Source: a virus (Duplodnaviria; Heunggongvirae; Uroviricota; Caudoviricetes). Taken from it: a DNA stretch of 35,731 nt. Both the position numbers and the translations under genes were made by a program. Below are positions 7,117-28,608 of the stretch, one piece after another. The DNA lies in the IMG/VR virus record IMGVR_UViG_2713896799_000024, positions 1-35,731 of that record; one strand, written 5' to 3'. Below the pieces are notes generated by a model that was given only the letters and a program-made list of their open reading frames with translations, made no database searches and had not been told where the DNA came from. The number at the start of each line of letters is the position of its first letter. Within the stretch, counting starts at the first letter, position 1.

Positions 7117-8451
7117 ATGTTTAGCTTAATCATGGCCGGAGAACCGGACGTTTTTGACCGCTGGCCGTGTATGGACCCTGAGCTTAAAGAAGGCAAGGAA
7201 AGCTTCTCGATGTCCCGCATGCTGGAAGGCACCCCAAGCAATATTTACAGAAAATTAACACCAATAAGACCCGATACCTTAAGAGTACTCGCCAAGCTAC
7301 CGGTGTTGTTCATGACCGAAATTTATACAAAAGATGATGAATATGATACAAACAAGTACATCAGGATCAGGCTTGGGGAAATAAGAAATTTACGTAAAGA
7401 TGGTGGCGATATTTTATTTTCTTTCAAGATTAATCATGATTTTGGAGAAATAACAAATCCCCAAACGACATTATATAAAGAAACCCTAGGACTAGGATCT
7501 TTCGGGTTAAGTCGTACACATTGGGCAGTAAAAAATAAGGATTTGAATATTGTTCTGGAATTACTTGGTTTAAACAAAAAAAATAGCCATCTGAAAGGTA
7601 CAATCAAATTAAAAAAACAAACATACCCAGTAGTCGAGAATATTATAGATTATCTTAATTTCATTAAGAAAAACTTTCGTGATGGTCTCATTACCTTCTA
7701 TCGTGGACACTCTAAAAGCTCATATGAGCTTGTCCCCTCTCTTTACAGAAAAAATCAAAACGGGACGTACAGGCATCTTGCTTCAGAATCTGATTTAGTA
7801 CGTGAAATACTCAGCGCAAGACCAAATGAATTTAAGGAGGATAAATTTACGATTGATAAACTTGTCCGCATGCAGCATTATGGCTTGCCTACAAGACTCT
7901 TAGACATTACATCTAACCCACTGATAGCATTATATTTTGCTTGCTGTTCGAACCCCGATGAAAACGGACAGGTGATTTCGTTTTCAACAAACAGAAAGAA
8001 AATTAAATATTTCGACTCAGACACAGTGAGCTGTATAGCAAACTTATCACTTTTATCTTACGAAGAGTTGGAAAAATTGTCTTCCATTGATGCCAGAAAA
8101 GGTAGTATGGAGTTACCTGAACTCACTGATAAACTTGCAGACCTTATACAGAATGAAAAATCATATTTCAGAAACAGAATAATCCCTGATGACTTAAAGA
8201 AAGTTGTTTTCCTTAAGGCAAAAATAAATAATGAACGCATACAATCTCAGGCAGGAGCTTTTCTTCTGTTCGGACTTGATCCCATTTTACCGGAAACAGA
8301 TGCTGAGTTTCCTCTTAACAGAGTGGAGATAGCGAACAAAAATAAAATTCTGGAAGAGCTGGCACAGCTTAATATATCCGAAAGCACTGTATATCCCAGC
8401 ATGGAGAAAACGGCAGCAGAAATTACAAAAAAGTTTTTATCGGTATCATAA
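7117..8451 (+). CDS. Cargo gene at the P2 Z/fun position: FRG-domain protein (444 aa), function unknown, candidate anti-phage/abortive-infection protein
   Basis: AGGAG RBS 6 nt upstream of ATG; translation contains ITFYRGHSKSSYELVPSLYR and RMQHYGLPTRLLDITSNPLIALYFAC, matching the FRG-domain signature (FYRG motif, QHYGLPTRLLD block); visibly AT-rich and on the opposite strand to the flanking late genes. Confidence 0.75.
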   Translation: MFSLIMAGEPDVFDRWPCMDPELKEGKESFSMSRMLEGTPSNIYRKLTPIRPDTLRVLAKLPVLFMTEIYTKDDEYDTNKYIRIRLGEIRNLRKDGGDILFSFKINHDFGEITNPQTTLYKETLGLGSFGLSRTHWAVKNKDLNIVLELLGLNKKNSHLKGTIKLKKQTYPVVENIIDYLNFIKKNFRDGLITFYRGHSKSSYELVPSLYRKNQNGTYRHLASESDLVREILSARPNEFKEDKFTIDKLVRMQHYGLPTRLLDITSNPLIALYFACCSNPDENGQVISFSTNRKKIKYFDSDTVSCIANLSLLSYEELEKLSSIDARKGSMELPELTDKLADLIQNEKSYFRNRIIPDDLKKVVFLKAKINNERIQSQAGAFLLFGLDPILPETDAEFPLNRVEIANKNKILEELAQLNISESTVYPSMEKTAAEITKKFLSVS

Positions 8452-8681: not shown

Positions 8682-9209
8682 TTATTGCGGCATTTCCGGC
8701 CATTCAGGATTTGCAGGATCCACACGGCTGACCAGAACGCTGTAGCGTTCCCATGACTCCAGTCGTGCGCGCTCCTCATCCGTCGCCATATTCAGCCTGA
8801 CGGCGCGTTCCAGCGGCTGGATAACTGATTCAGCTTCGGAAAGTAACGCGGCCTTTTGTGATTCGGCCTGTTGTTGCTGTTCGTCTGCCGTATAAATCCG
8901 CTTAATCACGGCACCATCCTTAAACATCCATTTACCTGAGTCATCAGCACGTCGGTTGGAGGTAATATCAGGAACCTCGACAACGCTGAAACCTTCAGGG
9001 TTAAGCGTTGAAGCATCTCTGGTGATGCCGACAATTATATTATTCTCGTCGTAAACAATCTTTATCGTGTCTTCCTGAAAATTACTTACTTCCTCATACC
9101 AGTTTTTTCCCTCTTCGGACCATAACCAGATAACATCAAAATTTTTTGTCAGTTGATATTGGGCAACAGTTTTTGGATTACCCGCAGTAATATTTTTTAA
9201 ATGCTGCAT
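8682..9209 (-). CDS. G: Tail fibre assembly protein G
   Basis: 175-aa [33 protein letters not shown]..., directly downstream of the tail fibre gene, as P2 gpG. Confidence 0.88.
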
Positions 9210-9212
9210 AAA

Positions 9213-9827
9213 TTACACCTGTGCGACGTTATACCATGTGCCATTGATGTATTTTTGTATTGGCCTGAATACTGCGGGGTCATCACCATCGACTTCACCG
9301 ACAATACCAAGCCCGGTAATTACGTGCCCTGCTTTCTCATACATCACCCCTTTCTGCATGGTCTGGACAACACGTGTGCCAAGTCTGATATCTCTCACAT
9401 AGCGGGAATCAAAGTTACCGTAATCCGAGGGATTAACACGCCCCGTAATATTTATGGTCTTATTACTTTGAATGCTTCCGGAAACAAAGCGCATAACATG
9501 GACGTTATTAGCATAAACATCCAGATTACCATCGCCATTTTGTTTAAATCCGGTGTCGTTATCACCAAGAACAATAGAGTTCCCACCCAACGCGTTATTC
9601 GTGCCAAGTGCCAGCCCGCCATCAATCCTGGCACCATTACCAACAGACACAACTCCTGTTCTTAAGTTGATGCCGAATGGCCTTAATGGCCCAATATCTC
9701 CATTTTCACCCTCATTTTCTCGTGTAGGAATGATATACAGGTTTTCTTCAGAACGGCGAAAAATAGCCCCAAAAGATGAATTAAATATCCTCAGTGCATT
9801 GACTGTAGATATTTTGCGTATTTTCAT
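9213..9827 (-). pseudogene. H: Tail fibre H, 3' fragment separated from the 5' part by an IS21-family insertion
   Basis: 204-aa ORF with G/N-rich beta-strand-like tail-fibre C-terminal sequence; its apparent ATG lies within the IS terminal repeat region and has no RBS; lengths of the two fragments (487+204) approximate intact P2 H. Confidence 0.75.
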
Positions 9828-10007
9828 GAAAGGAGATCACTCAATAACTTCCATCGAGATCGGGTAATAACATTTGAACAGATCGCTGAATAACATCGAT
9901 GGAGATCACTTTTGACTCATTTTGTTATTCAGTGATCTCCATCAATGTTATTGGAACTTCACAGGTGTGTTGATCTGTATCTTTTGCCATTCCGGTAAAG
10001 GATACCT

Positions 10008-11549
10008 ATGCCAACAGTTCCAATTTCTATGAGAAAACTTAAAGAAATTCTTAGGCTTAAATACGGTGTTGGACTCAGCCATCGACAAATTGGTCGTAGT
10101 CTTGCAATCTCCCCTTCCGTTGTATCCAGATATGCTAATCGGGCGGCTCAACTTGGCATAAAGCAGTGGCCCTTACCTACAGGATGGGATGATACAAAAC
10201 TAAAACATGCGTTCCTTCAGACCCAGGTTAAGATGAAGAAGCACTCTCTGCCTGACTGGGCTACAGTACACCGGGAACTGCGTAATAAATGCGTGACGCT
10301 GCAGCTACTCTGGGAAGAATACTGTGAGCGTAATCCAGGCGGTTTTTACAGCTATAACCATTACTGCCGGATGTACCGTGAATGGCTCAAAACCACTTCA
10401 CCATCAATGCGTCAGGTACATAAAGCTGGCGAAAAACTTTTCGTTGATTACTGTGGACCTACCGTTGGCGTTACCGACCCTGAGACCGGAGAAATAAGAA
10501 CTGCTCAGGTCATCGTAGCTGTTCTCGGGGCATCAAGTTACACATGGGCAGAGGCCACCTGGTCTCAGCAGCTTGAAGACTGGGTGATGAGTCATGTTCG
10601 CTGCTTCCAGTGGTTGGGTGGCGTTCCTGAACTTGTTGTTCCGGACAATCTGAAAAGCGCCACATCCAGGGCATGTAAGTATGATCCTGACGTTAACCCT
10701 ACCTACCAGCAGATGCTTGAGCATTATAATGTCGCAGTTTTGCCTGCGCGGCCACGTAAACCGAAAGATAAAGCCAAAGCTGAAGTTGGCGTTCAGGTTG
10801 TTGAACGCTGGATCATGGCCCGAATCAGGCATGAGATCTTCTACAGCCTTGCATCGCTTAATCAGCGCATTCGGGAGTTGCTGGAAAGACTGAATAACAA
10901 AATAATGCAGAAGTTGGGTTATTCACGTGCAGAACTCTTCATCCAGCTTGATAAACCCGCACTGAAGCCTCTTCCTGAAGCCAGTTACAGTTACACCCTG
11001 GTGAAGAAAGTCAGAGTTCATGCCGATTACCACGTGGAAATCGACAAACATTACTACTCGGTTCCATGTTCGCTGTTAGGCCAGCAACTGGAAGCATGGA
11101 TCTCCGGAGAACTGGTAAGACTCTTCAATCAGGGGCAGGAGGTTGCTGTGCACCCGCGCAAGCGTACTTATGGCTACAGTACCCGCAACGAGCACATGCC
11201 TGAAGCTCATCGACAGCATGCCACCTGGACGCCAGAGCGTCTTCTGGAATGGGCGGGGCACATAGGCAGTGAAACTCATAGTTATGTGCTTCATATACTG
11301 AACTCTCGTCCACATCCGGAACAAAGCTATCGCTTCTGCCTTGGACTCCTGAACCTTCATAAAAAATACAGTAAAGCCAGACTTAATGCAGCATGTGCAA
11401 GAGCTCTGAAAACAAAGGTATGGCGTCTGTCAGGTATTAAATCGATCCTGGAAAAAGGTCTGGATAAACAACCTGTTCAGGATCCAAAACCAGATCTGTT
11501 ATCCACGATGGAACACGAAAACGTACGCGGCAGTGAGTATTACCACTGA
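10008..11549 (+). CDS. istA: IS21-family transposase IstA
   Basis: 513-aa ORF with N-terminal HTH region (LSHRQIGRSLAISPSVVSRY) and central DDE integrase-like region characteristic of IstA. Confidence 0.85.
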   Translation: MPTVPISMRKLKEILRLKYGVGLSHRQIGRSLAISPSVVSRYANRAAQLGIKQWPLPTGWDDTKLKHAFLQTQVKMKKHSLPDWATVHRELRNKCVTLQLLWEEYCERNPGGFYSYNHYCRMYREWLKTTSPSMRQVHKAGEKLFVDYCGPTVGVTDPETGEIRTAQVIVAVLGASSYTWAEATWSQQLEDWVMSHVRCFQWLGGVPELVVPDNLKSATSRACKYDPDVNPTYQQMLEHYNVAVLPARPRKPKDKAKAEVGVQVVERWIMARIRHEIFYSLASLNQRIRELLERLNNKIMQKLGYSRAELFIQLDKPALKPLPEASYSYTLVKKVRVHADYHVEIDKHYYSVPCSLLGQQLEAWISGELVRLFNQGQEVAVHPRKRTYGYSTRNEHMPEAHRQHATWTPERLLEWAGHIGSETHSYVLHILNSRPHPEQSYRFCLGLLNLHKKYSKARLNAACARALKTKVWRLSGIKSILEKGLDKQPVQDPKPDLLSTMEHENVRGSEYYH

Positions 11550-11560
11550 TACGGGATCCA

Positions 11561-12310
11561 ATGATGAATCATCTTTACGAACAACTGACCGCACTTAAAC
11601 TCACCGGCTTCCGTGATGCGCTTAAAAAGCAACTTGCTCAGCCGGGCACATACCAGGAGCTGGGCTTCGAAGAACGCCTGTCATTACTGACAGCAGAAGA
11701 ACTAACCTGCCGTGAAAACAGGAAGGCAGAGCGTCTGATCAAACATGCACGGTTCAGACTTAATGCTGAGTTATCAAAGCTGGATTATCGTAACAATAGA
11801 GGGCTGGACAGGGCCCTCATCCGTTCACTCAGTCAGGGAAACTGGTTAACCCTGAAACAAAATATTTTACTGACCGGGGCCACCGGCAGCGGTAAAACGT
11901 TCCTGGCATGTGCACTTGGTCATAATGCCTGCCGACAGGGATACAAGGTCTACTATTATCGCCTTAAAGCGCTGATGGAACAGTGCTATCAGGGGCATGC
12001 TGATGGAAGATACAGCAAACTTTTGACCAGGCTGAATAATAGCGATCTGCTGCTTCTGGATGACTGGGGGCTGGAACCTCTCTCATCAGAACAGCGTAGC
12101 GACCTGCTGGAAATAGTGGATCTGATGTACCAACGAGGCTCAATCATCGTAGTGAGCCAGTTGCCGGTGGAAAACTGGTACAAAATGATCGGAGACTCCA
12201 CACATGCGGATGCCATCCTAGATCGACTGGTTCATGGCAGTATCAAGATCGAACTTAAAGGAGAATCAATGCGGAAAATACAATCTCCGTTGACCGAAGG
12301 AGATCAGTGA
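11561..12310 (+). CDS. istB: IS21-family helper ATPase IstB
   Basis: 249-aa ORF with Walker A LLTGATGSGKTFLA and Walker B LLLLDDWG; immediately downstream of istA. Confidence 0.88.
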   Translation: MMNHLYEQLTALKLTGFRDALKKQLAQPGTYQELGFEERLSLLTAEELTCRENRKAERLIKHARFRLNAELSKLDYRNNRGLDRALIRSLSQGNWLTLKQNILLTGATGSGKTFLACALGHNACRQGYKVYYYRLKALMEQCYQGHADGRYSKLLTRLNNSDLLLLDDWGLEPLSSEQRSDLLEIVDLMYQRGSIIVVSQLPVENWYKMIGDSTHADAILDRLVHGSIKIELKGESMRKIQSPLTEGDQ

Positions 12311-12380
12311 AGGTAATTTAAAAACGGTTCTGTGAAAGTGACACGAACCGATCTCCATCGATGTTACTCACCGATCTCCT

Positions 12381-13844
12381 TCACGGTAATACGCATATTT
12401 TTACTTCACTGCTGAAAAGGGCTTTAACAAGAACATACAGAGCATCCCATTTAAGATTCATCAGGTCTTTTGTTGTGGTGCTCTGGCGACTTCTCCATTT
12501 GAAATATTCATTGCCGTTGTCACCTGTTTCAAACCACATATATGAATCAGTATCGCTGTCGGCATCATTTTTAAATCCAATCTTTGCCCAGTCAGTATTT
12601 CGAATCCAGGCAAGGATTGAGTCGTTTTCAAAAGTAAGCCCACCGGACAAGGTATCGCCATTCTTTTGCACCGCGTTCCTGGCCCTGTTTACCGTTTCCT
12701 GCAAACCGAGGTATTCGATAACGGCAGTAACGGTCGCTTTGGCAAGAATATCCCGTCCGACTTTTGTCAGGGTTGCCAGGCTGGCAACATCATTCCCCGT
12801 AAAATACGGAAACCTGTCTGCCGCAGTAGCAAGCCCCGCCAGCGCCGTCAGGGTAGCATCTTTCGGTTGCTTACCCGCAAGCGCATTAGTCATGGTGGTA
12901 GCAAAATTCGGGTCATTGCCCAGCGCCGCCGCCAGCTCGTTCAGCGTATTCAGTGCGTCAGGCGACGAGTCTACAAGGGCGGCAATCGCGGCCATAACGA
13001 AAGCCGTGTTTGCGATCTGAGTATTATTCGTTCCCTGTCGCGCAGTTGGCGTCGTTGGCGTTCCGGTCAGTGCAGGGCTGTTTAATGGCGCTTTTTTGTT
13101 CGTTTCATCCATTACCGTCTTAACGGCTTTTGGTGTTGCGGCGAGCGTTTCAGACGTGCTGTTGGTGGCACTACTGAGCTGGACAAGGCCTTTTCGCGCT
13201 GTGGTGGCGTCCTGTGCGGTATATTTCCCGTTAGCCAGGTCATACGCGGCCTTTACCGCTTTCGGCGTTGCGGCCAGTGTTTCAGACGTGCTGTTGGTCG
13301 CACTGCTTAACTGAGTAAAACCTTTTGCGGTCAGCGAGGCGTCCGGGTGACGTCGTGACTGTTCGTGCTCTGCAATTTTGTCATCAACGTAATCTTGCGT
13401 CGCCATCACCGTTGTGGTGTCAATGGTCAGCTCCACTGAGGCCACACTGCTGACGATGATGACCATGCGGCAGGTCTGCGAACGCCCTGAGCCTTCGGCA
13501 AGGGCAGGTTTATAACTTTCGGCCATGTTCGCCACGGCAATTAACGTTCCCGCATCATCGTACAGGCCAAGCTCCCGCATCCAGAAACCGCCCACCTCCG
13601 GCGGAATAATCAGCTCTGCGATAATATAATTACTGTTTCGTTTGTCCTGGCTGATTTTATTCAGCGCATGTCGCCAGACTTCATGGATAAGCCCGGTCTG
13701 TCCGGCATCCGGGACAGGCAATTTACCACCGCCATCCCCGACGGCCATCGTGGTAATGTTGACCTTTCGCCCTCCCGGCGCGGTTGCCGCTGCCAGCTTT
13801 GCTGCACCGGCAGTGGTGATAACGGTTTTGAATTTTGTGCTCAT
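12381..13844 (-). pseudogene. H: Tail fibre H, 5' fragment; reading frame runs into the IS21-family element and terminates
   Basis: 487-aa ORF starting MSTKFKTVITTAGAAKLAAA (P2 gpH N-terminus); last residues (KICVLP-stop) are encoded by the IS terminal repeat. Confidence 0.85.
13119..13330 (-). repeat. Tandem duplication inside H (two ~80-bp homologous units, period 132 bp), encoding repeated QLSSATNSTSETLAATPKAVK
   Basis: Near-identical nucleotide blocks at ~13119-13198 and ~13251-13330; the repeat is visible in the protein and in the antisense ORF 13096-13314. Confidence 0.8.
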
Positions 13845-15290: not shown

Positions 15291-15638
15291 TCAACTCACA
15301 GGGATGGTTAACGAAAGTGGCTGGCCGGTGTCGTTGTGCTGGCCGGTTAACGTGACCGTCATTCGCCCGTCAAAGCTGCGCGCCGTGGTGACGGATGACA
15401 GGGTGACGCGGGGTTCCCATTTCAGCACCGCCATGTAACAGGCGACCTTAATCTGCAACTCAAGCGCCGGGGTCTGCGGCTGGTCAATCATTGATGCCAG
15501 CAACGAGCCGTAATCACGACGCATCACCCGTGAGCCGACCGGTGTACGCAGGATATCGCCGATACTCTGGCTGATATGCTCAAGGTCAGTGACAGTCAGG
15601 CCATCACTGCGATTCATTCCGAGATAACGCGCTGTCAT
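15291..15638 (-). CDS. W: Baseplate protein W (gp25-like)
   Basis: 115-aa ORF between V and J. Confidence 0.88.
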   Translation of the reverse strand: MTARYLGMNRSDGLTVTDLEHISQSIGDILRTPVGSRVMRRDYGSLLASMIDQPQTPALELQIKVACYMAVLKWEPRVTLSSVTTARSFDGRMTVTLTGQHNDTGQPLSLTIPVS

Positions 15639-16270
15639 AAAGGACTCCCGGTTGTGCCACCGCTGTCGCCGGGGTGTTTATGGGTATGCAGTACCTTACC
15701 GTTTGATGAGAGTTCACCGCCGGTATGTTCAATGTTGCCGCGCATCGTCCCGCCCTTCTGCACTTCCAGCGTGCCGATAATCAGCCTGTTGGTGCAGACC
15801 ACCTCCGGGGTGTCCAGGGTGACGCGGGTTGATGCTTTCACCATGACCACCGGCACCGTGGCAGTAACAGAATCAGAGGCCGTCACGCTGGCCGTTTTAA
15901 TTCCGCTTACCGTAAGTGCACTGGTTTCGGGTTCATATTCAATCACCGCCCCGTCAGGGAAACGGATATGCAGGGCATCCGCCGACGCAGACGGCGCGGG
16001 GTTATCGCCGGAATAAATCCCCGGCAGAACGAACGCCGTGTCGAGTTCACCGCCCACGGCCAGAATCAGCACCTGTTCCCCCACGGAAGGTGCCCACCAT
16101 GTGCGCGAACGCCCGGCGCGATGGGTCAGCCACTGAAGCCAGTCGGTGCACATGCCGCCGGTCTGCACACGGCAGCGACCGGCGTTAAGGTCGGTTTCGA
16201 CGACAAGGCCGGTACGAATCATGTTGCGCAGTGCGCGCGCGAGTTCCTGAATATTTGCGAGAGTGTTCAT
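15635..16270 (-). CDS. V: Baseplate spike/assembly protein V
   Basis: Translation from MNTLANIQELARALRNMIRTGLVVETD... (211 aa); the upstream in-frame extension to 16315 is rejected because it abuts the late-promoter dyad. No clear SD before either candidate start. Confidence 0.85.
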   Translation of the reverse strand: MNTLANIQELARALRNMIRTGLVVETDLNAGRCRVQTGGMCTDWLQWLTHRAGRSRTWWAPSVGEQVLILAVGGELDTAFVLPGIYSGDNPAPSASADALHIRFPDGAVIEYEPETSALTVSGIKTASVTASDSVTATVPVVMVKASTRVTLDTPEVVCTNRLIIGTLEVQKGGTMRGNIEHTGGELSSNGKVLHTHKHPGDSGGTTGSPL

Positions 16271-16317
16271 AACGGGAAGGATGCCGCCAAGAAAGCAGCA
16301 CGGCAAACCTCCCATTA

Positions 16318-16335
16318 TGTACTATAGCTGACACA
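16318..16335 (-). promoter_or_regulatory. Candidate Ogr-dependent late promoter dyad (P_V), TGT-N12-ACA
   Basis: tgtactatagctgacacaACAG: perfect TGT-N12-ACA with the ACAACAG core shared with 6675 and 24279; located between the S-V cargo gene and V. Confidence 0.6.
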
Positions 16336-16352
16336 ACAGCATATTTTGTGTG

Positions 16353-17879
16353 TTATTCCTCATTCTCTTTTCCATTTAAGAGCATTCTTTTTTCACATAT
16401 TTTTTCAACAAGCAAGTTTGCAAATGTATCTAGCTGTGCGTATATATCCTCACTAGGATTTATGGTAAAACCTCCAATGCCATTGGCAGTATCAAACATG
16501 CCAACAGGTGCATCACTATATCTTAAAGGAATAACACACCCATCACCAAATCTATCCCTAAATGTATCACCTTCAAATTTGCACCATATTCTAGTTGGAT
16601 AATCCCTACTCAAAAACGGAATTACAAAAACAGACTCACTCCTATAAATTGGAGCAAGATATTGTTCTACATCTTCAGAAAGTATTCTGGCCTGCTCATT
16701 GAAATCATAAAAAACAGATAACTCATTCTCAATCAGCTTTTGATTTAAATATTCCGCATGATTTCTATTAGCTCCAGCAAATGATAAAGCAAAGTCATAT
16801 TTCGACTTAAACTCAAATGATGTGAACCCTATCTTCTCCGCAAGCTTGCTCCATAACAAATTCTTTATATAATAATAAAACTTGGGATCTTCGATTGAAA
16901 TCTCCGTAGTTTCATCATTATAATGAATAACATCCGAAAAATCAGGATTGCTCTCATAATGCGTTTTTAAATGGCCTCGCGTCAGAATTTGCCCAACGCT
17001 ATTACGATGATTAGGATTGTTAATTAAATAACTTGTCAAATTTAAAGAACGCTCATCTTCTTTAGATAACCAATATAAAACGTGGAGATATGGAGCTCTA
17101 CTACCCTTTTTAACCCGCTGGCCTTTCACAAAGCGAACGACTATATCATTGAATCTATAGCTAAGATCCTGAATCACTGTTTCTTTAAGTGATTCATAGC
17201 TAATATTTGTTTCCCGAGGAGATTCTAACTCTTCTGTGATATCAGCCTGTAAACAAGCATTATAAGCCAACATTTGCGCCAGATGAAATGCCCCATCCGA
17301 GTCCTTTACAATATCTTCTTTTACATTTAGTTTGAAATTAAGCGCATTCTCACCTTTTTCTAGCAACTCCCTGACCTTATATTCCGGATTGGACTCAAAT
17401 TTAACAATGGAGATTCGATTTAGTAAATCCGGTGATAAATCAATCAGTGATTTGCCTGTTTTATTTATACCTATAATAATCAACTTAGAATCTAAGGGTT
17501 GTTCATCCGCTAAATTTTTCAGCAAGTCAGATATTTTATGCTTCAACTCATCATCTAACTTATGAAAATCATCAATAATCACCCCACCGAAACCACTCGT
17601 TGTTATTATATTTTCAATCTGGGCTTTATCTTCCTTTTTCCTTCCAGACAATACTTTAAACTCTTTAATTATCCGACTACTGGTCTCGAATTTTAACTTT
17701 TCAATAACCTGTCTTACGCAAGTCGTCTTCCCTATACCTGATGGCCCTTCAATAATTACCCCTCTTCCCGCTGTTCTTATCGACACATAGAGGTGTTTAT
17801 ACTCGTTAGGTTCAACAAAAGTAATTGTCGGGATACCCGAAAGTTTAAAGACATCTTCTAAATACACTGGTTCGCGCAT
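16353..17879 (-). CDS. Cargo gene between S and V: P-loop NTPase (N-terminal) fused to TIR domain (C-terminal), 508 aa; candidate single-gene anti-phage defence protein
   Basis: Walker A GPSGIGKTT, Walker B GGVIIDDFHKLD; C-terminal YDFALSFAGANRNHAEYL...SVFYD...SVFVIPFLSRDYPTRIWCKFEG matches the TIR fold signature, including the WC..E glutamate that is catalytic in TIR NADases. AAGGGA RBS before ATG; visibly AT-rich. Confidence 0.8.
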   Translation of the reverse strand: MREPVYLEDVFKLSGIPTITFVEPNEYKHLYVSIRTAGRGVIIEGPSGIGKTTCVRQVIEKLKFETSSRIIKEFKVLSGRKKEDKAQIENIITTSGFGGVIIDDFHKLDDELKHKISDLLKNLADEQPLDSKLIIIGINKTGKSLIDLSPDLLNRISIVKFESNPEYKVRELLEKGENALNFKLNVKEDIVKDSDGAFHLAQMLAYNACLQADITEELESPRETNISYESLKETVIQDLSYRFNDIVVRFVKGQRVKKGSRAPYLHVLYWLSKEDERSLNLTSYLINNPNHRNSVGQILTRGHLKTHYESNPDFSDVIHYNDETTEISIEDPKFYYYIKNLLWSKLAEKIGFTSFEFKSKYDFALSFAGANRNHAEYLNQKLIENELSVFYDFNEQARILSEDVEQYLAPIYRSESVFVIPFLSRDYPTRIWCKFEGDTFRDRFGDGCVIPLRYSDAPVGMFDTANGIGGFTINPSEDIYAQLDTFANLLVEKICEKRMLLNGKENEE

Positions 17880-17909
17880 ATATTCCCTTTAAGATTAGTG
17901 TAAAAAGAT

Positions 17910-17945
17910 GATCTATAATATTTTTTTTCGCTATTTTCAAGTCAA
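17910..17945 (-). promoter_or_regulatory. Candidate sigma70-like promoter for the ATPase-TIR gene
   Basis: Minus strand reads TTGACT (plus 17940-17945), 16-19 bp spacer, AATATT/TATTAT (plus ~17915-17923), about 35 bp upstream of the ATG; AT-rich context. Confidence 0.4.
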
Positions 17946-17994
17946 CAAGCGATTGCCCCCCTAATGATTTCACCAATGATGATTAACTATGTTT

Positions 17995-18444
17995 TTATTC
18001 TAGATGGTTAGAGATAATCCCTTCAATCATCTGCACATCCTCACCGGTAAAGCCGAGCAGAGGACGCGCCGGATAATCAATTTTCTTACCGTCTTTCCGG
18101 TTTTCTTCCGACAGACCGAACTGATGCACACTGGCGATTTTCGGTGACTTTCCGCCGTAAAACTCCATTGATGCCTGTTCCGGGCTGGCGCGGATATGCA
18201 AAAAACGACTGGTGATAAGTTTCGCAAACATTTTTCGTTTAACGCGACCGGTCTTTTTTCTGGCGCTCTGCTGCTGGCGTGGTGCGTAGGGTGTGCCGTC
18301 CGGGGCTTTCTGTGCCATCACCCGACGCTGCTGACTCTGACGCAGACGTTTCGCCAGTTCGGCACTCAGTCGCCGACGCCCTGACGGTGACAGCGACTCA
18401 ATCAGTCCGGTCAGCCGGTCTTCAAAACGCTTAAACTCATTCAT
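17995..18444 (-). CDS. S: Tail completion protein S
   Basis: 149-aa ORF MNEFKRFEDRLTGLIESL..., overlaps R stop. Confidence 0.88.
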   Translation of the reverse strand: MNEFKRFEDRLTGLIESLSPSGRRRLSAELAKRLRQSQQRRVMAQKAPDGTPYAPRQQQSARKKTGRVKRKMFAKLITSRFLHIRASPEQASMEFYGGKSPKIASVHQFGLSEENRKDGKKIDYPARPLLGFTGEDVQMIEGIISNHLE

Positions 18445-24278: not shown

Positions 24279-24296
24279 TGGCTTATCACTGACACA
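24279..24296. promoter_or_regulatory. Candidate Ogr-type late promoter dyad in the O/P divergent region
   Basis: tggcttatcactgacacaACAG: TGG-N12-ACA + ACAG, same core as the 6675 and 16318 elements; centre about 95 bp from the O ATG and about 78 bp from the P ATG. Which of P_O / P_P it represents is unresolved. Confidence 0.5.
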
Positions 24297-24365
24297 ACAG
24301 CACCTTAGCGAATCGCGGGGCGCGACTCAGTAGCCTTGCCGTGTATTCATCACGGCGAGGTATTC

Positions 24366-27575: not shown

Positions 27576-28505
27576 TCAAACCAGGCTTTTGCCTTGCTTC
27601 ATTTTTTTAGATGAGTCTAAAAATTTGAAATTACCATTAGATGAAAATATTCTTTCTGCGGTATGCCGAATGACTGAAGTATTGAAGACCGCAGCCTGCT
27701 CCTCATTACAACTGAATACACCCTCATGACCATCAAACTCGCCCGCCAAAAGAAGGTTTTTTGATACTGGGAACAAAACTAAAGTGTCTTTTACACCAAA
27801 CCCGGGGGAATAAGGGCCTCGTGCTAATTCAGGATTAGTCCACATTAAGCAAACTGGGTTATCTGAAGTTATAAATGACCCTTGCCCATCAGATATGGTC
27901 ATAAGTGACCAGTTGCGTTGATGCAACAACTTGGTGATAACAGGTACACATTTCATTTCCATATCTATCATGAACTCTCTGATTACATTGATTTCGAAAT
28001 TATCCCCATCCACAAAATTTTTAATTTTTTCGTAAGCGAGATCATATGGCAAAGACTCACCCATTTCTTTCTCATAAGCTAATTTGCAATCGTCCCAACG
28101 CTCAGCCGAACTAACTGAGGATTTCATGATAAACTTTGCTATTTGTTTCAATGGAGATGATAAATGTTCTCGCTGAGCAGGCGTACGTATTGCCAATAAG
28201 GAAATAAACTCCAGAATAACATCTTTGGTTTCGCCTGAAAACTCGCCCCCCTCCTCAAGTTTTCTTAAATGAGTAGCGACACTGCCTTCAAACTCTGCAA
28301 GAGAACTCTCGAGATAGTTTGGGTCAACTCCATCCAATTCTAATCGGTTGAAATCTCTAACCCCCCCGACATTGCGAGTATTACTCTCAAAGGTTTTGCG
28401 CTCCTTTAAATCTATTACAGTTAATTTTGATTTTTTCCCCCCATTACTTGTAAACCCTTTCAAATAACATTGGGATAAAAAATGATGATGCCTTGCAACA
28501 CTCAT
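27576..28505 (-). CDS. Cargo gene at the P2 tin/old position: DUF4238-like protein (309 aa), candidate single-gene anti-phage protein
   Basis: Translation from MSVARHHHFLSQCYLKGFTSNGG... (HH-x-P/S-Q-x-YL-x-GF N-terminal signature of DUF4238); GGAG SD 7 nt upstream; visibly AT-rich; downstream of A on the same strand, where P2 carries tin/old. Confidence 0.7.
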   Translation of the reverse strand: MSVARHHHFLSQCYLKGFTSNGGKKSKLTVIDLKERKTFESNTRNVGGVRDFNRLELDGVDPNYLESSLAEFEGSVATHLRKLEEGGEFSGETKDVILEFISLLAIRTPAQREHLSSPLKQIAKFIMKSSVSSAERWDDCKLAYEKEMGESLPYDLAYEKIKNFVDGDNFEINVIREFMIDMEMKCVPVITKLLHQRNWSLMTISDGQGSFITSDNPVCLMWTNPELARGPYSPGFGVKDTLVLFPVSKNLLLAGEFDGHEGVFSCNEEQAAVFNTSVIRHTAERIFSSNGNFKFLDSSKKMKQGKSLV

Positions 28506-28608
28506 ACTCAGCTCCGTTATGGCTATAATCGCATAAATAATAAGCACTTATATTGCAATCATCTAGTTAAATACACAATATTTATGACTCCGAAATTTCA
28601 TTAAATCA

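Follow-up and report, generated by a model that had tools for sequence, protein, structure and literature searches.

The prophage sequence studied here (IMG/VR record IMGVR_UViG_2713896799_000024, positions 1 to 35,731; the whole stretch of 35,731 nucleotides is referred to as the window) is P2-like, with its late genes on the minus strand, and carries an additional gene between the late genes S and V. Gene S (17995..18444, minus strand) was identified from the list of open reading frames (ORFs) and encodes gpS, a tail completion or virion morphogenesis protein of 149 amino acids that is of the P2 type except for its last six codons. Its stop codon corresponds to 17995-17997. The protein is 97-100% identical to gpS in 80 IMG/VR P2-like contigs, and in near-identical prophages PGAP names it 'phage virion morphogenesis protein'. 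Gene V (15635..16270, minus strand), the first gene of the P_V operon, was identified from the ORF list and by comparison with P2 and Wphi, and encodes the baseplate spike gpV (211 amino acids). Its ATG is located at 16270 (DNA MNTLANIQELARAL...) and the protein begins with MNTLANIQ, the same as V of P2 and Wphi. No Shine-Dalgarno sequence was found before V. The interval between the two genes (16271-17994) comprises 1,724 nt with 35% G+C; the G+C content is 0.34-0.36 throughout, against 0.55-0.62 in the flanking sequence. It contains a single intact ORF of 508 amino acids on the minus strand.

The product of this ORF (16353..17879) was found to consist of a Cdc6/ORC-like AAA+ ATPase, a lid and winged-helix region and a C-terminal TIR domain. 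The AAA+ core (residues ~36-160; 17400..17774, minus strand) displays a Walker A motif GPSGIGKTT (K51), a Walker B motif DD (D103, D104) and a sensor-1-like N139, and is followed by an alpha-helical lid and a winged helix, as is expected for Cdc6/ORC- or STAND-like ATPases. In Pfam it matched AAA (1.1e-6), AAA_14, AAA_22 and AAA_16, and nSTAND more weakly. The TIR domain (residues ~358-475; 16455..16808, minus strand) adopts the flavodoxin-like fold and includes the invariant residues W432, K434, F435 and E436. The last of these aligns with the glutamate of the WTEYE and WTNYE motifs in 7uxr and AbTIR, which we take to be the catalytic residue of AbTIR. The AlphaFold model is confident, with a predicted local distance difference test score (pLDDT) of 87.3 and a predicted template modelling score (pTM) of 0.85. 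A sequence search of the PDB with the single protein gave no match; profile and fold searches were needed, and the TIR matches obtained by sequence and by fold include bacterial as well as plant TIR domains.

The family to which the protein belongs is large. Among 8,000 candidates scored, 1,957 were homologues with E <= 1e-3. An alignment of 40 homologues showed a mean column identity of 60% and 90 invariant columns, which include all the catalytic motifs (G45-K51, T53, D103, D104 and N139 in the ATPase, together with the four TIR residues mentioned above). No family-level model was found in NCBIfam, and in PHROGs the protein corresponds to phrog_6841, with no function assigned there.

The position of the gene is not new for this group of phages. 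According to the P2 reference record (NC_001895), the order after S is a putative terminator, the non-essential gene orf30 (786 bp, opposite strand, 261 amino acids), the pV activator site and V. A passage in Lynch et al. 2010 (PMC3091744), citing Nilsson and Haggard-Ljungquist, describes non-P2 genes as very common in the TO-region, the Z-region and orf30, and presumes them to be horizontally acquired. In phage R18C a 741-bp ORF is found in place of orf30 (PMC6823313). Recent papers on hotspots, in turn, centre on tin/old and Z/fun. An initial annotation of the window had located the S stop, the S-V interval and the activator dyad correctly, as was confirmed on rechecking. It had also assumed that S of P2 runs directly into P_V and V, and that the insertion occupies a non-canonical site; neither holds, because the P2 record carries Orf30 at this very position. 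Its proposal of a third variable locus stands as far as recurrent variability is concerned and falls as to novelty, since orf30 had already been listed with the TO and Z regions. The window and the orf30 region of P2 share the position between S and V, an AT-rich and non-essential content that is present, absent or swapped for unrelated genes, and a P_V site immediately downstream. They differ in that the window holds a 508-residue AAA+-TIR protein on the late-gene strand and P2 the 261-residue Orf30 on the opposite strand; moreover, P2 has an annotated terminator after S, whereas none was predicted in the window.

The variability of the site was evaluated in two sets of relatives. The S-V region was present in 1,618 of 5,426 complete E. 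coli genomes, and among 60 matches taken at even spacing from these 1,618, about 36 were empty (66 nt), about 12 contained an orf30-sized insert and about 8 contained other inserts. The second set comprised 80 IMG/VR contigs with gpS at least 97% identical to that of the window: 46 loci were empty, 29 held an orf30-sized insert, two the present cargo, two an insert of 1,042 nt and one an insert of 1,308 nt. Thus, about 20-35% of E. coli P2-like prophages carry orf30, about 60% are empty, with the 66-nt site also seen in Wphi and most relatives, and at least six alternative states exist among relatives with gpS identity of 97% or more. The alignment check suggested in the initial annotation therefore showed a recurrently variable junction. 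Its description of the segment as foreign cargo was likewise borne out. A structural gene was ruled out, since the site measures just 66 nt in 58-60% of close relatives, and no conserved gene occupies it in most of them.

The other occupants of the site were also inspected. They comprise a 359-residue RelA/SpoT-domain protein (RelA_SpoT, PADLOC candidate PDC-S33), a 414-residue ATPase (PDC-S59, 2.8e-31) and proteins of 347, 246 and 261 amino acids without assigned function, the last being Orf30. Cargos of this kind were located in E. coli prophages at L004 1090-2169, L005 1107-2351, L006 1112-2155 and L007 1027-1767 (L numbers denote the compared loci); they represent the RelA/SpoT-domain protein (PDC-S33), a PDC-S59-like ATPase and two proteins without known function (phrog_9373 and phrog_10503). 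Because of the recurrent presence and absence and the varied occupants among relatives, the S-V site resembles the other P2 hotspots in its behaviour, and some of its cargo is of a defence-like kind. The cargo of the window fits this locus: it lies between S and V, upstream of the P_V activator site, it has a deviant base composition, and the content of the site differs or is absent in closely related P2-like phages.

The AAA+-TIR gene itself is rare in E. coli. Only 2 of the 5,426 complete genomes contain this exact cargo, and two genomes independent of each other encode the same protein without any difference (WP_047644722.1). No homologue was detected by tblastn in 50,697 GenBank phage records, so that the family is visible in prophages and metagenomes only. 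All homologues with 65-84% identity and readable context belong to P2-like prophages, where they occupy the gpS-gpV junction and share the strand of the late genes; these lineages are L103, L010, L100, Serratia marcescens, Rahnella and Erwinia tasmaniensis, three of them being metagenomic contigs. The S-V orthologues formed one clade in a simple neighbour-joining tree calculated without bootstrap, and the identity of the cargo to that of the window (65-84%) tracks that of R, V, W and J (54-86%). At ~60% identity, the homologues are found outside P2 prophages as genes standing alone; two adjoin AbiJ-like, HNH or ADP-ribosylglycohydrolase genes and the rest lie in unremarkable chromosomal contexts. 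The nonsynonymous divergence (dN) was 0.11-0.27; the synonymous divergence (dS) was saturated, so dN alone is reported. The cargo is under purifying selection.

Some further features of these lineages were observed. The gpS proteins of L010, L011, L014, L099, L100 and L103 show only 42-50% amino acid identity to that of the window and have thus diverged far more than the adjacent R, V, W and J (54-86%), and in several lineages the 3' end of the gpS gene is AT-rich, as if it had been remodelled along with the cargo. The G+C content of the cargo is 0.35-0.36 in the window and in the same six loci, with neighbouring genes at 0.49-0.65, which represents a lack of amelioration despite an apparently long residence. 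In our reading of these sequences, a P2 phage lineage of enterobacteria would have captured the gene once, long ago, at its S-V site; exchange of a tight cassette by homologous recombination would then have carried it into P2 backbones of E. coli.

The limits of the exchanged segment were determined from junction comparisons with six orthologous loci, with P2, which carries orf30, and with Wphi, whose site is empty. When the window is aligned with Wphi and other phages that have an empty site, identity extends to the end of '...cagatgattgaagRgattatc', a point six codons short of the S stop (18012/18013), and the last six S codons have been replaced within the cassette. Identity resumes at GGCGGCATCCTTCCCGTT (16288-16271), directly followed by the ATG of V, which places the second breakpoint at ~16288/16289, 18 nt upstream of that codon. 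On the basis of these junctions and the G+C trough, the cassette (16289..18012, minus strand, ~35% G+C) contains, besides the AAA+-TIR gene, a new S tail and promoter-like elements as well as the Ogr box and the left arm of the pre-V hairpin. Its donor was probably a P2-like phage of another enterobacterial lineage, and its recipient a P2 backbone typical of E. coli. Insertion of a transposon or of a site-specific element was considered and rejected: flanking direct or inverted repeats were limited to 10-15-mers at chance level, and the boundaries fall in P2-like homologous sequence.

Just upstream of V, the initial annotation had recognized a late-promoter activator box, and this assignment was confirmed. 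The Ogr-type box for P_V (GCTGTTGTGTCAGCTATAGTACA; 16318..16340, minus strand) was assigned by pattern, position and a repeated 13-mer. It includes TGT-N12-ACA at 16318-16335, and its centre lies 56 nt from the V ATG, the same distance as the annotated pV activator site in the P2 record, where the start of the V operon (pV) is set at the V ATG. By count alone the TGT-N12-ACA pattern is not above chance (7 occurrences in the window against 8.3 expected), and significance from the pattern count was therefore dropped in favour of positional and 13-mer evidence. The 13-mer GCTGTTGTGTCAG, which includes the left half of the box, occurs twice in the window (0.04 expected; two copies in 0 of 100 shuffles), both on the minus strand: at 24289-24301, in the intergenic region of the P/O late promoter, and at 16328-16340, upstream of V. 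It looks like the extended left half-site of the phage's Ogr-type activator box. In addition, a TTGT...ACA box was centred 53-58 nt upstream of V in nearly every S-V variant examined. It is this position, the repeated 13-mer and the conservation among variants that make the box meaningful. The Ogr consensus and the operons P_O (ONMLKRS) and P_V (VWJIHG) are summarised in PMC3931495.

The same box bears on how the insertion took place. It had been proposed that the foreign DNA landed upstream of P_V and so spared the promoter. The breakpoints at ~18012/18013 and ~16288/16289, however, place the Ogr box inside the swapped segment, where it replaces the recipient-type box. Accordingly, the box is of the donor type (TGTTGTGT......TAGTACA), as seen in the orthologous locus L103 (TGTTGTGTTCTGGTTAGTACA) and in the window (TGTTGTGTCAGCTATAGTACA).

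Directly 5' of the V ATG a stem-loop was found (16271..16315, minus strand), which was compared with Wphi, L007, L011, L100 and L103. The inner arms are hybrid: GCCGTG at 16299-16304 is donor-type, as in the Serratia-type L011 and L100, and GGCGGC at 16283-16288 is recipient-type, as in E. coli P2-like phages. This locates the right crossover in the pre-V hairpin. With an extended outer stem GGGAGG/CCTTCCC, the predicted fold has -27.4 kcal/mol (z -2.5). A GC-rich hairpin 5' of V is also present in Wphi, L007 and the cargo-bearing L010, L011, L014 and L100; among the loci compared it is absent from P2, L004-L006 and L099. More generally, a hairpin at this place was observed in P2-like phages of several genera (the L002 copy lies at 1540-1562, and L103 also has one). 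As a speculation, it might keep read-through transcripts from expressing V.

A consensus scan of the cassette revealed promoter-like elements at two places. The first, TTGAAG-18-TAGAAT, spans the end of S (17997..18026, minus strand), and its -10-like hexamer is made by the replaced S tail. At the equivalent position of the S 3' end, L011, L010 and L100 show TTGATA, a spacing of 17 and then TATAAT, TATAGA or TATACT, and no -10 hexamer is found there in P2 and Wphi. The second region (17912..17945, minus strand), ~35 nt upstream of the cargo ATG, contains TTGACT-17-AATATT overlapping TTGAAA-17-TATAGA. In L103 the pair TTGAAT-17-TATAGA was recognized at the corresponding place by eye only; the scan does not list it since it scores 8 of 12. 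From their sequence and position, these elements may function as promoters.

Taken together, the cassette is likely, in our judgement, to be a rare import at the known orf30 locus whose AAA+-TIR protein serves the lysogen as a single-gene abortive-infection defence. In favour of this, other S-V cargos are defence-like (the RelA_SpoT protein of PDC-S33 and the ATPase of PDC-S59), and the gene occurs in prophages whose other two hotspots hold different defence-type cargo. The proposed course of events would start with recombination in the last S codons and in the pre-V hairpin, by which the cassette would be imported. Since the cassette carries its own Ogr-dependent P_V box, the VWJIHG operon would remain under late control. 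The cargo would be expressed from the prophage, probably by the sigma-70-type promoters of the cassette, including the one within the 3' end of S. An infection cue would then trigger ATP-dependent oligomerisation of the AAA+ and winged-helix module, a nucleic-acid cue being plausible because of the winged helix and the likeness to Cdc6/ORC. Through oligomerisation the TIR domains would meet and build active NAD+-hydrolase (NADase) sites, and the resulting NAD+ depletion would stop the growth of the infected cell and abort the infection. This mechanism is modelled on the TIR-STAND, TIR-SAVED and TIR-STING effectors. The identity of the locus, its polymorphism, the breakpoints, the domain architecture, the conserved catalytic residues and the purifying selection are established here; prophage expression, the role in defence, the trigger and the NADase output are proposals.

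A validated counterpart is Rst_TIR-NLR, a single-gene TIR-STAND-TPR system from a P4 hotspot (Rousset et al. 2022, PMC9122126). Both are single polypeptides that combine a TIR effector with an NTPase of the ORC/STAND class and reside in hotspots of the P2/P4 mobile-element family, and in both NTP-dependent oligomerisation is proposed to activate the TIR domain. They differ in that the domain order is reversed in the present protein (NTPase N-terminal, TIR C-terminal), which has no TPR or sensor repeats and is much smaller (508 amino acids); no sequence-level family match between the two was found. Likewise, the C-terminal sensor and N-terminal effector typical of NLR-like, Avs and Rst_TIR-NLR proteins are not seen here. 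The ATPase and helical region (residues 53-337) matched PDC-S59, a family of stand-alone ATPases of ~420 amino acids, with 1.5e-19. A PDC-S59-like protein sits at the same S-V site in E. coli 258E: this 414-residue cargo matches PDC-S59 with 107 bits over positions 37-292 and is homologous to residues 100-339 of the present protein (E 9e-12), up to a conserved 'I-E/R-D-P...Y' end motif. Unlike the AAA+-TIR protein, it and the PDC-S59 proteins have no TIR domain, and such PADLOC candidate families are computational candidates rather than validated systems. AbTIR, PdTIR, TIR-STING and TIR-SAVED are stand-alone virulence factors or cyclic-nucleotide-activated effectors, whereas the TIR domain described here is fused to an AAA+ ATPase.

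Several observations weigh against a defence role in the lysogen. The Pfam TIR_2 match (residues 363-456, 4.4e-6) scores 27.6 bits, just below the cut-off of 28, and the PADLOC match is partial (PDC-S59 profile positions 110-399 of 428, 68 bits) and to a candidate family only. Neither the Pfam scan nor the model contains a repeat or sensor domain (TPR, LRR, WD40), and the protein ends with the TIR domain. In the literature on AAA-TIR systems and PDC-S59, no paper characterising the family or the architecture was found, and Vassallo 2022 holds no TIR system. The promoter-like sites of the AT-rich stretch are not enriched over shuffles (8 against 6.1 expected), and an intrinsic terminator was predicted neither after S nor after the cargo; compared with a moron, which has its own promoter and terminator, the cassette thus shows positionally conserved yet unenriched promoter-like elements and no predicted downstream terminator. 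Finally, the gene lies on the late-gene strand in eight of eight lineages, and in L010 a gap of 13 nt separates its start from the S stop, so that it may be mainly late-transcribed.

These last points lead to the main rival explanation, to which we assign a minor but real probability: the gene would be co-transcribed with the late O operon, act at a late stage of infection and serve the lytic cycle of the phage, for example by excluding superinfecting phages or P4-type satellites or by remodelling host NAD+ metabolism. It would account for the shared strand, the lack of a predicted terminator after S, the distance of only 13-38 nt between the S stop and the cargo ATG in L010, L011 and L100, and the single clade of P2-linked orthologues whose divergence follows that of the backbone. 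On the other hand, ~95% or more of the close E. coli relatives are without the gene, which is therefore dispensable; conserved sigma-70-like elements lie upstream, one of them created in the S tail; and relatives of the gene stand alone in bacterial chromosomes outside phages. Furthermore, an active NADase produced late would hurt the phage's own burst unless tightly gated.

A different output of the TIR domain was also considered. Some bacterial and plant TIR domains produce cyclic ADP-ribose isomers. Given the TIR matches of both origins, the protein could in principle make a signalling nucleotide, as in Thoeris, instead of depleting NAD+, with a partner effector encoded elsewhere. We regard this as very improbable: the cassette holds one gene, neither a ThsA-type effector nor any other conserved partner was found beside the homologues in the 12 contexts inspected, and the fusion to its own NTPase resembles self-contained NLR-like effectors. 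Equally improbable, and already largely refuted by the conservation of the cargo, is a passenger without current function (recent, silenced or decaying AT-rich DNA), which would fit a 35% G+C segment in a 57% backbone and its rarity among complete E. coli genomes, but not an intact ORF with an identical protein in two independent genomes, 90 invariant columns across 40 homologues with all catalytic motifs among them, dN far below saturated dS and intact orthologues in seven other P2-like lineages.

Beyond the defence role in this prophage, a broader proposal can be put forward more tentatively, and we consider it possible though rather doubtful. The family may form an unrecognised class of single-protein anti-phage sensor-effectors, in which a minimal Cdc6/ORC-like AAA+ module with a winged helix would assemble in response to a cue of nucleic-acid or replication type and so set off the TIR NADase at the C-terminus. 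One of its clades would be a long-term passenger of the S-V site that co-diverges with Enterobacterales P2-like phages, with 35% G+C throughout and a promoter in the 3' end of the gpS gene, and the hairpin and leaderless V start would perhaps insulate the late operon from transcription of the cargo.

The backbones of the cargo-bearing E. coli prophages are otherwise ordinary, and their other two hotspots differ from one another. In the window, tin/old contains a DUF4238 protein (27576-28547, minus strand; PADLOC 'DUF4238-Pers', full-length, 725 bits), and the Z/fun region contains a 444-residue FRG-domain protein (7117-8451, plus strand; PADLOC candidate PDC-S15, 328 bits). In the sister prophage L003 (E. 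coli 28A18CPO003A), which has the same S-V cargo, these hotspots hold a PDC-S06 ATPase and a tail-fibre shufflon with its invertase, respectively; the ATPase, of 735 amino acids and with a PrrC-like C-terminal region, belongs to tin/old (9147-11354). In L018 an ATPase and an HNH endonuclease are found. As L003 shares the S-V cargo yet differs at tin/old, the three hotspots assort independently. It was also observed that the tail-fibre gene H of the window (9216-13844) is apparently split by an IS21-family element. Residues 1-437 are encoded at 13844-12402 and the C-terminal part at 9806-9216, both on the minus strand, and IstA (10008-11549) and IstB (11561-12310) lie between them on the plus strand. 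The prophage is probably tail-fibre defective.

A third cargo site is textbook P2 biology; what is new is an uncharacterised AAA+-TIR cargo at a known locus. Recent surveys of defence hotspots have largely overlooked the S-V (orf30) site despite its defence-type cargo, which includes RelA/SpoT-type, PDC-S59-like and AAA+-TIR proteins. As far as the literature found goes, the large and strongly conserved AAA+-TIR family is uncharacterised, and its member in this prophage is a compact, clonable candidate for studying the control of a TIR NADase by a minimal AAA+ module. Because the cassette brings its own putative promoter and the activator site of the downstream operon, it illustrates how cargo can be swapped within a late operon without losing late-gene control. 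The AAA+-TIR gene is thus a candidate defence gene, tied to one lineage, in an under-studied hotspot of P2-like phages.

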